A stretch of 45,826 bases of DNA from Rhizodiscina lignyota (GCA_010015805.1 ML978140.1:372001-417826), one strand, 5' to 3'. Numbered from the stretch's first letter, positions 38,395 through 45,826 are shown. Program-made: numbers and translations. The notes: a model not told the origin generated them from the letters alone.

Positions 38395-40284
38395 TCAAAT
38401 AGCGGCACCCTCATTTGCAGGCGTCGCAGGCGTCGCAGGCGCTGCTGGAGGAGTAGCAGGACTCCCTCCTGCGGACGCAGCACCTCCCCTTGCCATACCC
38501 CCTCGCCCGCCTCTACCACCTCCCCTACCTCTTCCGAAATGTCCGCCACCACCTCTTGGAGCCTGCGGCTGTCCCCGTCCGCCCGTACCGCCTTCCCGTT
38601 TCTCTAATATCACAACAGCGCCCTCAGCAACCTTCACCGGACTCGCTTTGATCGCCGCCTCGAGGCCCTCGGGCGATTCAAAGGTGGCATACGCAAAGCC
38701 CTTGCGCTTGTCGATCTCGACGTTCTCGACGTTTCCGAAGGTGGAAAGAGCAGTTTGGAGCAGCACTTCAGTGATGCCTTGGGAGGGGTTGGCGTGCTTG
38801 AGGAAGGCTTGGCGGCCTGACGATGGCGGAGAGGATGTTGATTGCGAGGGAGATGGCGTAGCTGTTACGCTTGCTGCTGATGTTGCTGATACAGCTGAGG
38901 GCGTGGGACTCGCACGGGCCGCAGCTGGTCCGGTTGGAGGTCTCTGTGGTGGGTGCTGTTGCGCTGCTGGGCCTGTGGGGGCTTTCTTCAAGATTGTAGG
39001 TGCAGGTGCTGCGGCAGACGGACTTTGATCACTATTCTTTTCCGCAAGAGCGGCTTTGTGCGCTCGGCGTTCGGCACGCGTGGGCTTGTTGTCCTTCTTC
39101 GGGCTGCGAGTGTCCGATGTCGAAGCTGCTGCCGCCGCTGGAGCAGTTGGCGGAGTTGCAGGAGCAGCATCCTTTGGTGCTGTTGATGGCTCCGTGTGTT
39201 TGGCAGAGTCTCCTGCCAGCTCACGTTTGCCACGTCGTCCGCCAGCTCCAGGGCCAATGCCCAAGTCTCGCTGGAGCATCTTCGCCGCGATGCTGGCATT
39301 GCCACGCTCTCTCTTACGCTCCGCTGCTGGCTTGGGTGGTGTTGCAGTCGGAGTATTCTCAGTTGCGGGCGTAGAAGCCGAGGTAGACGACGCAGCAGCC
39401 TCTTTATTAAGGACCTTGACCGCCTCTTTCGCTGCTCGATCGGCTTTGCTTAACTTCTTGCCCTTCTCTGGAGACGCTGTTGCGTCCCGTGCTGCTTTTG
39501 CGGACGCCTTCTTCCCCTCGCCCTTCTCACTGCTCTTATCCTCCTTCGACTCCTGGCGTGCATGCTTGCCGCCCTTTCCACCAGACGAACCTTTCTCTTT
39601 CGCAGCTTTCTCCTTAGCTGCCTTCTTCTCCCGCAGATGTTCTATGAGCGGTGTGGTAAGGACTTCCTTTTTATCTACCGCATCTGCGGACTTACCGTCA
39701 ACTTCTGCCGCTGTAGGCTTAGGAGCAGGATTTGTGAGGCTCTCAAGGAAAGCTTGGAATTCACTGTCTTGGTCTATGAGGCCCTGGCGAGCGTCATTTC
39801 TACGCTTGCCGCTTGGTATGCGCGTGTACGGTGCGAATTCGAGGGATGGAGGACCAATGAGCGCGGCATCTTTCATCGTATTCTTTGCGTCGTTAAATGT
39901 AGTCGTGCGAACCTTCTCGGAGAGTGCTTGGAGATGAGTTTGCGAGGTGAGGTGGATATACGCCCGCGAAGGTCTAGAGGGTTTCGCCAAACTGATAGAT
40001 TTAGTATACTCAATATAGAGTCAATGACTGCGTCCGTACTCTCTCGACACTTTGCCTGACTTGTATTCCCTCCAATCGACTTTCCCCTGGCCTACTTTCC
40101 ACTCATCTCCCAGGGCAGCTTCGAATTCCGCTTGGGTGAGGCCTGGTGGTAGACGGCGCAAGACAAGCTTCAAGCGTGGGGCGGACGCTTTACCCGGCGA
40201 CGTATTGCTTGAGTTTGAATGTTTCTGGAGGACAGCGGTAGGCATTGGCAGGACGCCGCCTGCTGCATGTGATGGAGGCACCAT
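38395..40284 (-). CDS. UPF3: Nonsense-mediated decay factor Upf3 with extra C-terminal RRM and RGG tail, ~613 aa, exons 40284-40040, 39991-38395
   Basis: Smg4/UPF3 domain RLKLVLRRLPPGLTQAEF...GKVSR(D)LAKPSRPSRAYIH...EFAPY...GLIDQDSEFQAFLESL...TTPLIEHLR. 48-nt intron. Confidence 0.93.
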
Positions 40285-40756
40285 GTTGCTGTCATTTAAT
40301 CGTGGGGAGGTCGGAAGCTGGAGTTGATAAAGTGAAATTGAAGATGCACCGAAGCGATGTGCAGTGACGAATGCCGGTTGGCCCCTGCACCCACCATTTG
40401 GCGGCGTGGGCGGCTCGGCGGCACCCTGAGATCTCGTGGGCACCCATGGCCACCGCATCCACCGCAGAACGATATCTAATTCTACGCCATATCCATATAC
40501 CTACCATTCCCTCGACAGAATGCCGACTTTCGTTGTACGATTGGCATGCTAACCATCCTCACGACCTCGTCCCGCTCCTAATACACAGCCGTACTCTCAC
40601 CACCTCCACCTTCACCTCCGTACTCGCTGACATATCGCCGCCCCCTTCGCCCTCCGTCTGGTCACACGATAGACCCCAGACCCCTCCGCAATTCCCCAGC
40701 TTTTCGCACAACTTCCACAAGACTGACGCGCTGCGCAGTCTAGCCCCATCAACAGC

Positions 40757-42293
40757 ATGACCAGAGACAGCGATGTCCCGCAGCCGGGCCCGGCGCGGTT
40801 ATCAAAAGGAGCAGGACCAGACGAATGGCTCGAGCAGGCGAAGCAGTGCAAGTATCTGCCCGAGTCGGACATGAAGCGGCTGTGCGAGATTGTGAAGGAA
40901 CACCTCATGGAAGGTCGGTTTTGAATTCTCAAGATCATCCCAAAACGCGGCGCTCTTTGAGCGAGGCTTTAGACAGCGCCGGGTACCACTACTAGGACAG
41001 TTACACACTTACGTTTGACTATGCAGAATCCAACATCCAACCCGTTCGAACGCCCGTCACCGTCTGTGGCGATATTCATGGCCAGTTCTACGACCTGCTC
41101 GAACTCTTCCGCGTCGCAGGCGGCATGCCTTGCGACCCGTCCGTTTCTCCCACCCCAGCGCCAGATGCCGCGACATCTCCTCAAGCCTCGCCAGCACCGA
41201 CAAGGCCGATGATTAGGGCGGAGGACATTGAGCCACCTACGCAAATCACTGACGTCAAAGTCAAGAGGAAGATGAAGAGGCGCTTCCAGAGAGACCCTAA
41301 TTATATTGCACCGGTGAAGAGCGACGAAGAGGACGAGGATGAAGATATGGAGGATGACGTGCGCGGGAGGATACGGAGTAGGAGTATGAATAGCGGCATG
41401 GGGGACGAGGACGATGAAGAGGAAGAGGAGAGTGGAGGAGGAAGTGGAGACGCTGGGAGCCCGAGCCAGAACTACGTATTCTTAGGTGACTTTGTGGACC
41501 GGGGATATTTCAGTTTGGAGACCTTTACGTTATTATTATGCTTGAAGGCAAAGTGAGCGCCTAAACTGCATATCCCGCAAAAGCCAATACAGTGCTAATA
41601 CGTCTCACAGATTCCCAGACCGGGTTACTCTCGTCAGAGGCAATCACGAATCCCGCCAGATCACCCAAGTATATGGATTCTATGAAGAGTGCCAGACAAA
41701 GTATGGCAACGCATCAGTATGGAAGGCGTGCTGTCAAGTCTTCGACTTCCTTGCACTTGCCGCTGTCGTTGATGGCAAGGTACTTTGCGTGCACGGTGGC
41801 CTGAGTCCCGAAATCAGGACACTGGATCAAATCCGTGTAGTCGCGAGGGCACAGGAGATTCCGCATGAAGGAGCGTTCTGCGACCTGGTGTGGAGTGATC
41901 CTGACGAGGTGGATACCTGGGCGATCAGCCCGAGAGGAGCAGGTTGGCTATTTGGTGACAAAGTCGCTACCGAGGTAAGTTTCCCGTCCCTCCACGCACA
42001 CATTTTTTTGACCAGAGTACCTGACCTTTTCCCAGTTCAACCACGTAAACGGTCTCCAACTCATCGCCCGAGCGCACCAGCTCGTACAGGAGGGCTACAA
42101 ATACCACTTCAAGGACAAGGACGTCGTGACCGTGTGGTCCGCGCCAAACTACTGCTACAGATGCGGCAACGTCGCGAGCATAATGAGCCTGGGCGAGGAC
42201 TTGGATCCAAAGTTCACCATATTCAGCGCCGTGCCGGATCACAGGAGGGCTGTGCCGCAAGGGAGGGGAACGAGAGGAGAGTACTTCCTCTGA
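40757..42293 (+). CDS. SIT4: PP6/Sit4-type Ser/Thr phosphatase catalytic subunit, ~434 aa, exons 40757-40913, 41027-41552, 41611-41974, 42036-42293
   Basis: GPDEWLE N-terminus as in Sit4, plus GDIHG, GDFVDRG, RGNHE, HGGLSP, RAHQL, SAPNY and a C-terminal YFL*. Confidence 0.95.
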
Positions 42294-43039
42294 GGCGTTA
42301 GCTAAGCGTAATCCGAGTCCAGGATGGTTTGGCGGTTGCGGGTTGGAAGGACTAAGGGGATGCGAAATAGATCTTGCATATTGTTTGGGACGATGATACG
42401 AGAGCGCCGGGCAAAGAGCCCAGGCGGTTGTACCATACGCTTCTTTCAGTCGGTGTATGAATATTCATTTTGATGTGACTGGTGATGGCCTCTTGAACGG
42501 ACTTCGAGGACGTATGTTCATTCTAACACGAGTCTGTAACCGTAGAGCACAGGCTCATTTTGTGTCCCAACGTGTTAGCCGATAGTGGAGGACTATTTGC
42601 CAGAGGGTTTGAGGTTGCATGCGTTCTTTACTATTACGGAGCAATCACAGTTTCGAGAGAAACCTTGATGCAGGCCAGCCAATCTTGGCGGATCCGGGGA
42701 ATTGGCTATCGTCCGTTGTTCAACGCAGAACGGAGCGTGCTGTTCACCGAAGCGGTTGCTACATGAAATGTGCAAGCTGATACTCGACTGATATAACTGC
42801 ATGTCTTGAACACCCACGATTGATCCAGTCTTCTTTAGAACAGTATGGAATTAAAGCCTGCTTCTGCACATGTGATGTCTTTCAGATCCTTCAGCCTCGT
42901 CTCGATTTAGCTCGCTCAGCCTTCTCTCTTAAAAGATCAAAACTTTCTGTCCTTGTTTAATTGACGTTTCGATCACTTGAGACAATGTTAACCATTTAGA
43001 AACATCATGTTCCAGTAATGCTGAACACAGGCTCTAATC

Positions 43040-44672
43040 ATGCCGGAGCCGATAACCATTGTGAGCGCCGCGCTGGGCACAGCTACAAGCGCTCTCAGCC
43101 TAGCGAAGGCCACGTCCGATCTCATCACCGGAATCAAGGCGGCACCAAATCACATCACTAGGCTCTCAACTGATCTGAAGGGGCTCTATGTCGTGCTCGG
43201 AACGTTGGAATCTGCATTGGCAATTGAGACCCAAAACATTACCGAAAGGCTTCCAGCGCAGATGGCTGAAAACATGCAAGAGCTTTTGGACAATTGTGTG
43301 GAATGCCTGAATGATGCAACGATGTTGATCCGGGGCTACGTTGGCCATGACAGGCGTGCCAATATCGGACGCTGGAAAGCCATTAAATGGGAATTGCATA
43401 AAAAGAGCGAAGCAGCGGCGCTTCAAAAGAGTTTGTGTGGCTACAAGTTGACATTGGGCATCGCTTGTTCATCATTAAATTTGTAAGAGCTTCTTGATAC
43501 AATTGTGCTGTTAGCTGCTATGTTTAGGTTGCCTGACGTATGTTAGCTTTAACTCCTCGCACACAATAGATCATGTTCAACATCTCCATCAGGACCTGAA
43601 CCATCTTGGATCTGAGCTAGGAGCGGACTTTCTCCACTTCAGGGACCGGCTCGAGGATACGGAAGTGAGATTTGTCGCGCTTAGCCCTGCACAGCGTCTC
43701 GTTGAAGGAGCATGGGACGTAGAGAGTGACCATGGCCTTCCGATGAGACGATTCTTGTCAGGGACGGCATCCATTATTTCCAAACGATCGACAATTTCCA
43801 TAAGCCCCAGTATGATACTTTCTGAGCTAGAACCTTTGGATGACGATTCAGTCATGGAGAACGGTCATGTCGAAACAAGCAGTGAGAATGGCTCGTACAC
43901 AACCGTTATGGCCATTAACAGTATGGACACGCCTAGCGGTGCCCAGATCAATTCGACTCAATGTGTCTTGTCGAGCCCGGTGCCCCAAGGAGCTTTCGTG
44001 GACTTCTCGTTACCGGAAATTCAAAGGGATCCAATATCATTCCAGCTGGAAGTTGCATCTTCTTTCCAAGGCATGTCAGCTCTCCAAGGCGAAGTAACTC
44101 CACAGGAGTCTTCGCCTGTAAATGAGTCGGAATCCAAGACATCGCATCGGCGTAATTCAGCTTCCACCCCTTCACCACTGCGAATGGGCGCAGGCCAGAT
44201 GAGCTTGAGAAAACTGCAGCGCAAATTCAATTTCCGGGATGTAAAATCGATGAACGTTCTGTCTGGTCCACAAAATGCCGGCGATAACTCCAAGGACACG
44301 GAAGCTGCTGACGAAAATATCCGAATTCCTCGCCGTAGTAATGGCACCGAAAGGAGCGACGAGGACTCCGGCCAACCTCTGCCTGTCCTATCGGAGCGAC
44401 AGTCATCGCTGAGCACAGCGATAAAGGTGCTGGCCTTCAATGAACGTGTAGAAGTTGTTTGCACATGGTCGAATAAGGAATACGATAGATATACTGCTGT
44501 TAATACCTGTGATCTTTTGAACCCAATGCTCGTGCATCAGATAAAGGAGGAAGTCAACTCCTTCAAAATGGTAGGCCTCCTCAGCACGATCGCATCGATG
44601 CATTTGAATGACTTGACTGTTTAGGAAATGGAAGTCCATGCTGAGTCGAGATGTTTCACCCACTTTTTCTAA
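43040..44672 (+). CDS. HeLo-like N-terminal domain protein with Bni4-like C-terminal PP1-binding tail, ~504 aa, exons 43040-43482, 43547-44570, 44625-44672
   Basis: N-terminus MPEPITIVSAALG...ITGIKAAPNHITRLSTDLKGL matches the fungal Helo_like_N/SesA-type pattern. Spliced C-terminus VLAFNERVEVVCTWSNKEYDR...CDLLNPMLVHQIKEEVNSFKM|EMEVHAESRCFTHFF*. Confidence 0.8.
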
Positions 44673-45255: not shown

Positions 45256-45524
45256 CGCTGTAATGGCGGATTGGAGACGGTTCCTTAAATTAATGTCGAA
45301 ACCCCTGTTCTCTTCGGAGAAAGTGATTCTGCGCCCGTTCGAGCTGTGAGTTGGCCGCTTCCACTCAGCCAGGCAACTGCTGATGCTGGACGGCCCTGAG
45401 AAGGGAGAGTAACGGCTAGGATGGCAACATCGCACCCTCTCTCCCACTCGCAGCGGCTGCAGCGGATTACGCAGTGTCTCTTGGGGTATGTAGGTGTTGA
45501 TGTGAACATGTCAACATTCTTTTT
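45256..45524 (+). ncRNA. SCR1: Fungal signal recognition particle (SRP) RNA, ~270 nt, Pol III
   Basis: 5' CGCTGTAATGGCG is the minimal fungal Alu hairpin with UGUNR. Helix 6 is GGCCG...CAG-GCAA-CTG...CGGCC (45353-45395). Helix 8 is GGGAGAG...AGG-ATG-GCAA-CAT-CGCA...CTCTCCC (45403-45445) with the SRP54 symmetric loop. Long 5'/3' complementarity (helix 5), TATATAT at about -29, B-box-like GTTCGAGCT at 45337, and oligo-T at the 3' end. Confidence 0.9.
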
Positions 45525-45532
45525 ATTTTTTT
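45520..45532 (+). terminator. Pol III oligo(T) terminator of the SRP RNA
   Basis: T5-A-T7 immediately after the 3' strand of helix 5. Confidence 0.75.
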
Positions 45533-45826
45533 GCCCAAATTTTTTTCCTACTTCTAATTTTTTTTCCCTTTCCATCCTTCACTCTGCTTTATGTTTTAAT
45601 AGCCCCTCATCACTGTATGCTTAGTCTAAGGTTGAAGTGCGATCTCTTCTCAATACAGTACACGACGAGTACTCGCAGGTTCTGTCTGCTTTATTGCTTC
45701 TTCATGAACCCCCGACGTTGAGAAAACACTTCGACATTCGATTCAATTGTATTTTGACAAGAAGCTATGTTTACTTCGCCACTGTTCTCGACCTCAGTGC
45801 CAATAACGAGTTGTTGCACCCCCCCC

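Follow-up and report, generated by a model that had tools for sequence, protein, structure and literature searches.

The locus and its gene model

Near one end of a 45,826-nucleotide stretch of DNA from the wood fungus Rhizodiscina lignyota (ML978140.1:372001-417826, GCA_010015805.1; the whole of this analysed stretch is called the window below) lies a three-exon gene, at 43040-44672 on the plus strand, whose frame is intact and whose predicted product has 504 amino acids. The protein is predicted to begin with a helical domain of the HeLo-like family PF17111 and to end in a PP1-docking tail of the kind carried by fungal BNI4 and animal Phactr proteins, with a serine-rich linker between the two. 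This is a new combination of two known modules; each module is known, and their union is not. The parts of the gene are the following.

43040-43482 (+): exon 1, residues 1-147 and two bases of codon 148; most of the PF17111 domain
43483-43546 (+): intron 1, 64 nucleotides, GTAAGA...TGTTAG; the splice pair chosen in the database model
43547-44570 (+): exon 2, a single uninterrupted frame ending ...FKM
to about 43655 (+): exon 2, end of the PF17111 domain (Pfam match)
43656-44411 (+): exon 2, Ser-rich linker, residues 185-436 (from the sequence)
44418-44570 (+): exon 2, first 51 residues of the tail (tail-profile alignment)
44424-44438 (+): KVLAF, an RVxF-like motif (tail-profile alignment)
44571-44624 (+): intron 2, 54 nucleotides, GTAGGC...TTTAG, phase 0 after FKM
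44625-44672 (+): exon 3, last 15 residues of the tail (EMEVHAESRCFTHFF) and the stop codon (44670-44672)

An intact gene of three exons and about 504 residues had been proposed in a first-pass annotation of this DNA, and our analysis bears this out: the exons are open and the product has 504 codons. The first ATG of the frame, at 43040, is preceded by an in-frame stop. The counterpart in the databases is the hypothetical protein NA57DRAFT_81798 of R. lignyota (506 residues; P0001 in our set), whose model uses intron 1, misses intron 2 and ends in ...FKMVGLLSTIASMHLNDLTV, 21 unrelated residues. Because intron 2 ends in an in-frame TAG, an unspliced message stops 21 codons after FKM; the annotated protein reads through this intron and so loses the last 15 residues, as expected from the earlier suggestion that these appear only after splicing. 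The terminal block of the protein had also been quoted with the right sequence but with a start at 44421, which is the Ile codon before KVLAF; the Lys codon begins at 44424. Across the first gap there are four GT-AG pairs that preserve the frame, 43483-43546 being one of them, and intron 1 is supported because the PF17111 match runs over the junction of exons 1 and 2. In a DNA run (X1) that may be the source of the assembly, the stretch is found in one identical contig with no joints.

An open frame of 369 codons begins within the PF17111 match and extends to the tail. The linker that it crosses is Ser-rich, as had been claimed (42 of its 252 residues are Ser), and has a codon-usage score of +0.112 per codon in frame vs -0.27 in the other frames; the corresponding scores are +0.103 for the head, +0.120 for the tail, +0.112 for a neighbouring gene, and -0.16 to -0.37 for intergenic DNA. 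Since the codon usage of the linker is coding-like in its own frame alone, it supports one coding region, and a frame that joins the N-terminal domain to the tail through such a linker is, judged from the DNA, far beyond chance. Head and tail are probably made as a single polypeptide. One could instead envision two products, in which translation from an internal start in the linker would yield a short PP1-binding protein made of the tail only, the head being translated separately or not at all. Several in-frame Met codons in the linker would allow this; however, the frame is continuous, the coding-like codon usage is uniform from exon 1 to the tail, and the PF17111 match reaches into exon 2, so that we give this possibility very little credence.

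A HeLo-like head and a BNI4/Phactr-type tail

The N-terminal domain had been predicted to be HeLo-like, and Pfam agrees. PF17111, formerly named Helo_like_N and now PigL_N, covers residues 3-184 (profile positions 2-174 of 209; E 4.6e-10) and scores 39.7 bits, where the curated Pfam cut-off is 27.2; with the product of exon 1 alone it scores 35.8 bits (E 6.9e-9), which is also above this cut-off. The exon 1 product has a hydrophobic N-terminal helix rich in Ala, Gly and Ser. The related family SesA gave a weak match to the head (E 0.0097, under its cut-off), and HeLo proper (PF14479) gave none, either on exon 1 at E <= 10 or on P0001 at E <= 0.01. The ESM Atlas clusters closest to the head all bear PF17111, with scores of 0.83-0.87 that we treat only as a lead. 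A NACHT/NB-ARC (NOD) module is absent from the protein, P0001 having PF17111 alone in the Pfam scan and exon 2 being without a Pfam family. In the excerpts of PMC9815663 that we draw on, PF17111 is described as the HeLo-like domain found both in fungal NLRs and in partner proteins triggered by amyloid, and this domain is aligned with the executioner domain of MLKL. The protein is like these HeLo-like (HELL) cell-death proteins, and like the four-helix-bundle executioner of MLKL, in its N-terminal PF17111 match above the Pfam cut-off. In the same excerpts, PF17111 cell-death proteins either have a C-terminal amyloid signalling motif and an adjacent NLR gene or form the N-terminus of an NLR (PMC9815663). 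Unlike HELLP and HET-S-type executioners, the R. lignyota protein has a PP1-docking tail as its C-terminus; the linker was given no dedicated search for amyloid motifs.

The tail was compared with a profile (A1) of 69 positions built from 12 complete BNI4 tails. This profile matches the spliced model with 87.1 bits over positions 4-69, at residues 439-504 (66 residues, up to the stop), vs 55.1 bits over positions 4-54 for the read-through model; exon 3 raises the score by 32 bits and extends the match to the last position of the profile. When 1.84 billion representative proteins were searched with exon 2 at E <= 0.001, there were 82 matches, namely the protein itself, one unrelated repeat protein, and 80 proteins whose match runs through the tail (query residues 202-341); these 80 are matched at or close to their C-termini. 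Of 8000 proteins scored with the tail profile itself, 2311 reached E <= 0.001. Among the best 120 of these 2311, many bear the name 'Protein BNI4' or 'bud neck involved protein' in NCBI or UniRef, and by name these 120 include proteins of Sclerotinia, Fusarium, Colletotrichum, Chaetothyriales, several lichen fungi, Xylona and others. Among solved structures, this profile picks out the Phactr1 peptide of two Phactr1/PP1 complexes (6zef_C, E 9.3e-10; 6zee_W, E 1.3e-9) and the PP1-Phactr1 fusion 6zej (E 4.7e-8), from which we conclude that the resemblance of the tail to BNI4 and Phactr is real homology. The tail thus belongs, as had been proposed, to the PP1-binding family of fungal BNI4 and animal Phactrs, and it matches the BNI4-tail profile from end to end; Pfam has no family that matches either the tail or exon 2.

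The motifs of the family occur in the tail in the expected order: RVxF-like KVLAF, then VEV (identical to that of Phactr1), then EYDR. We took the motif definitions for the PP1-binding tail from excerpts of PMC7599070, in which the corresponding motif of Phactr1 itself is the non-canonical LIRF. The first-pass annotation had called the RVxF motif degenerate, and this does not hold: KVLAF aligns residue for residue with the R-N-[I/A]-[S/T]-F of the BNI4 family, LIRF is equally non-canonical, and, given this alignment and a VEV like that of Phactr1, the docking site is no more degenerate than in BNI4. The spliced protein stops directly after THFF, like the BNI4 family, which it does only with intron 2 removed. 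In the portion of PMC7599070 that cites Larson 2008, the Phactr1 tail is reported to be able to stand in for the PP1-binding domain of Bni4 in yeast.

Animal Phactr1-4 (Phactr1/PP1 structures 6ZEE, 6ZEF and 6ZEJ) have a PP1-binding C-terminus homologous to the tail (profile E about 1e-9), and the tail keeps the equivalents of Phactr1 Y534, R536, L545, I553, R554 (as Lys), E556, N558, F560, K561, E564, H568, S571, T575 and F577. Unlike Phactr proteins, the window protein is without RPEL actin-binding repeats, and its N-terminal part is unrelated to theirs. Also unlike Phactr1, and as in all fungal tails, the position of the Trp motif is Cys and those of R576 and H578 are His and Phe; because of these differences, the composite substrate surface should differ from that of Phactr1. 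In S. cerevisiae, according to excerpts of PMC6506691, BNI4 serves as a Glc7/PP1 subunit and targets chitin synthase III to the bud site. The R. lignyota protein is like fungal BNI4 in the tail-profile match, the RVxF-like site, YDR, the THFF followed by a stop, and the phase-0 intron after FKM. It is unlike BNI4 in length (504 vs roughly 700-870 residues), in its PF17111 head, in the absence of the upstream BNI4 blocks, and in a tail that is only 52% like the consensus.

The position of this intron, FKM|EMEVH, was compared in the 80 tail matches. Thirteen of them join FKM directly to EMEVH, and these 13 finish within one residue of a THFF-type ending. Six others read through in frame, five beginning with V and one with A, and all six reach Q-EMEVH; a V at the start and a Q before EMEVH are expected of an intron bounded by GT...AG. 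In the other 61 the sequence either reads through or stops, and 58 of these begin with V. The intron position is therefore common to the BNI4 family, which indicates that the tail would have been copied at the level of DNA and not from a processed message. It follows that the last 15 residues of the BNI4-type tail are missing from the R. lignyota model and from 61 of the 80 tail-bearing proteins examined, and that in 6 more of the 80 a translated intron displaces them. In Phactr1, the last tail residues matter for PP1 affinity. Two metagenome contigs, L003 (3-2237, +) and L004 (3-902, +), encode a long BNI4-like protein in which the tail is uninterrupted at FKM (FKMEEMDVH...THFFV); either these contigs are derived from transcripts or they come from a lineage without the intron.

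Relation to canonical BNI4

A full-length BNI4 profile (45 aligned proteins, 828 positions) contains many conserved blocks upstream of the tail. It matches the window protein only at positions 767-828 (residues 443-504, 81.8 bits), a second 'match' having -3.0 bits. With every conserved upstream BNI4 block absent, the gene is by its predicted architecture not a BNI4 orthologue, and the idea that it carries a captured, diverged BNI4 tail is supported by a match confined to the last 62 of 828 positions. Among the 29 other tail-bearing matches of at least 300 residues, some of which were in the training set of the full-length profile, the far-upstream part of this profile is matched by 25, only the tail and one short block by two, and the tail alone by two (P0004 and P0076).

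Among the proteins checked, the fusion was found in this one only. The PF17111 head was found in none of 33 long tail matches scanned and, by precomputed Pfam assignments, in none of the best 120 of the 2311 family members; canonical Bni4 is thus without such an N-domain, as had been stated, and the same fusion, which the first-pass annotation had proposed to seek in other fungi, did not appear in any of the BNI4-tail proteins so checked. A literature search pairing HeLo or HeLo-like with Bni4, Glc7, Phactr, RVxF or PP1-binding gave, within the library searched, no description of this architecture, in agreement with the earlier impression that it is undescribed; in one paper (PMC5742258) the words 'helo' and 'bni4' each occur once.

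Could this gene nevertheless be the sole BNI4 of R. lignyota, which would have lost its long N-terminal part, gained a PF17111 head and kept the BNI4 job? None of the best 120 of the 2311 family members is from R. lignyota, and the window holds this one tail only, with no second BNI4-type tail in it; both are as this explanation would predict. However, the full-length profile matches nothing of the protein beyond its last positions, while 25 of the 29 other tail proteins match far upstream, and in several fungal classes canonical tails keep a likeness of about 75-95% to the consensus, compared to 52% for this tail, a pattern that fits a freed paralogue. We therefore regard the sole-BNI4 explanation as improbable.

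P0076 (357 residues) was considered as a second fusion and rejected as evidence either way, as it matches through its tail only. That tail is strongly diverged and 51% identical to the window's, and the protein has no canonical BNI4 blocks. FastTree pairs the two tails with a support of 0.894, both being the two longest branches of the tree. The N-terminal 285 residues of P0076 have no Pfam match at E <= 10, and their Atlas scores are at chance level (0.81 or less). Its own contig was not found; of the four metagenome loci returned, the two read (L003 and L004) encode the ordinary long BNI4-like protein described above. P0076 could represent a second captured tail or the BNI4 of a distant lineage. 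P0004 (716 residues) has a consensus-like BNI4 tail, and its first 636 residues are without a match to the full-length BNI4 profile.

Proposed role, its alternatives, and the neighbouring genes

We favor the explanation, with a probability of roughly 55%, that this is one real gene encoding a lineage-specific regulatory subunit of PP1 (Glc7/PP1) with a HeLo-like head. By analogy with the Phactr1/PP1 complex, the tail would be unfolded alone and would wrap PP1 via KVLAF, the VEV strand and the Tyr-Asp-Arg 'Arg motif', after which an amphipathic helix and the folded-back extreme C-terminus would lie across the hydrophobic groove of PP1 to form a holoenzyme. As to origin, the 3' end of a BNI4-type gene would have been duplicated, at the DNA level because the family's intron came along, and joined by the linker of some 250 residues to a PF17111 (MLKL-related) helical head. 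The head might supply a place or an effector activity, probably membrane association by its N-terminal helix, and bound PP1 might keep the Ser-rich linker, a likely substrate in cis, dephosphorylated. If the linker were held in this state by PP1, the state of the head would depend on PP1. The parts of this explanation are not equally secure: that the tail binds PP1 is probable given its sequence; that the head has membrane or cell-death activity is a tentative proposal which we hold to be possible and somewhat doubtful; and that PP1 gates the head is unlikely.

Indirect evidence on PP1 binding comes from which residues of the tail have changed. Contact positions were defined as the 21 Phactr1 residues that PMC7599070, in the excerpts used, gives as touching PP1 or keeping the C-terminus folded back (F522, Y534, R536, W542, L545, I553, R554, E556, L557, N558, F560, K561, E564, H568, L570, S571, L574, T575, R576, F577 and H578). 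The family residue is kept at 18 of these 21 positions vs 16 of 45 others (Fisher p 1.7e-4), and two of the three altered contact positions are changed conservatively (L to V, Y to F). With the comparison restricted to columns conserved at >= 95%, 18 of 20 contact positions are kept vs 14 of 32 others (p 0.001).

Several observations weigh against the explanation we favor. The contact positions were mapped by eye, from two HMMER alignments with shared profile positions and from a mammalian complex, and the contact columns are the most conserved of the family, so that the test shows family-like constraint and not binding itself. The 67-residue part of the tail encoded by exon 2, when compared with solved structures, gave two weak matches at chance level and no Phactr1. 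Compared with the consensus built from 129 other complete tails, the tail has the same residue at 34 of 66 positions (52%), and among those 129 the lowest identity is 62% and the median 94%; it is thus the most diverged of the 130 complete tails, in a sample that leans towards the consensus, and 20 of its 52 residue columns conserved at >= 95% are altered, including R28Y, G29T and R36L. No orthologue was found: among the 1.84 billion representatives only the protein itself has an E value below 1e-10, and word-based searches with exon 2 and with the tail return only the protein itself. For the head, the AlphaFold2 single-sequence model of residues 1-220 is poor (mean predicted local distance difference test score 44.2), although it is all-helical with six helices between residues 4 and 190, and, since many proteins headed by PF17111 have no known role, membership in the family does not imply a cell-death function.

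An orphan with so diverged a tail could be an evolutionary accident, in which a BNI4-type 3' fragment came to lie behind a PF17111 gene and the resulting chimera is silent or drifting, its open frame and motifs being left over. Against this, the three exons are open, both introns keep GT...AG, the stop falls precisely at the family's end, and the codon usage of the linker equals that of neighbouring genes. The changes in the tail, moreover, avoid the positions that contact PP1 in Phactr1, and their extent speaks against a recent insertion that has yet to decay. We consider an accident unlikely.

Alternatively, the protein could act as a guard of PP1, a concrete form of the sensor proposed earlier, with a HeLo-like, membrane-attacking head that stays silent while the tail wraps PP1 and the linker remains dephosphorylated, and that fires when PP1 is inhibited, sequestered or hijacked, for example by microbial PP1 toxins. 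PF17111 heads known fungal executioners, which in the excerpts of PMC9815663 normally have a C-terminal amyloid trigger, and here a PP1-docking segment occupies the place of that trigger. In addition, as described in excerpts of PMC7599070, the C-terminal part of the Phactr1 tail lines a cavity whose hydrophobic PP1 side is part of the tautomycin/tautomycetin site. However, the protein is an orphan of a single species, and among the 50 of the window's 170 open reading frames (ORFs) that were scanned we found no NLR, no NACHT/NB-ARC match, no amyloid partner and no second PF17111 gene, leading us to regard a guard function as very improbable. The same scan, together with the lack of a NOD/NLR module in the protein, gives no support to the earlier suggestion that the tail serves as an integrated sensor or decoy.

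Were a guard function true, it would be a fungal cell-death switch triggered by the lost activity of an essential enzyme and not by amyloid templating. HeLo-like heads have so far been described as triggered by amyloid motifs or NLRs, and BNI4/Phactr tails as making PP1 a targeted, sequence-specific holoenzyme; a natural fusion of the two would tie a necroptosis-like head to the control of a Ser/Thr phosphatase in fungi, and would provide a compact test construct. The gene also suggests that a BNI4 tail, together with its intron, is mobile as a complete unit for PP1 docking. The scope of the finding is one gene in one species.

Features of the window outside this gene include the following.

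40996-42298 (+): catalytic subunit of a PPP-family phosphatase, PP2A type (Metallophos); the upstream neighbour
38398-40500 (-): UPF3 gene (Smg4_UPF3 and RRM), split over two open frames
45520-45560: T-rich low-complexity stretch, downstream of the gene
45820-45826: run of C at the end of the window

About 750 bases separate the PP2A-type gene from the PP1-docking gene downstream of it, and both are on the same strand. Compared with solved structures, its product scores 181 bits to PP2A catalytic chains vs about 123 bits to PP1. The phosphatase, being of the PP2A type and not PP1, is not the expected partner of the tail, and we treat the adjacency as a coincidence. It may be Sit4/PP6-like, the comparison made having covered PP2A vs PP1 only. 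From the gene to the end of the window, neither of the two ORFs scanned has a Pfam family. Further upstream are UPF3, a Gemin5-like TPR protein, an MT-A70 methyltransferase, a UBA protein, a GH79-like hydrolase, a Zn-cluster factor, ribosomal protein L2 and a cyclin; the split of the UPF3 gene over two open frames suggests an intron near 40020.

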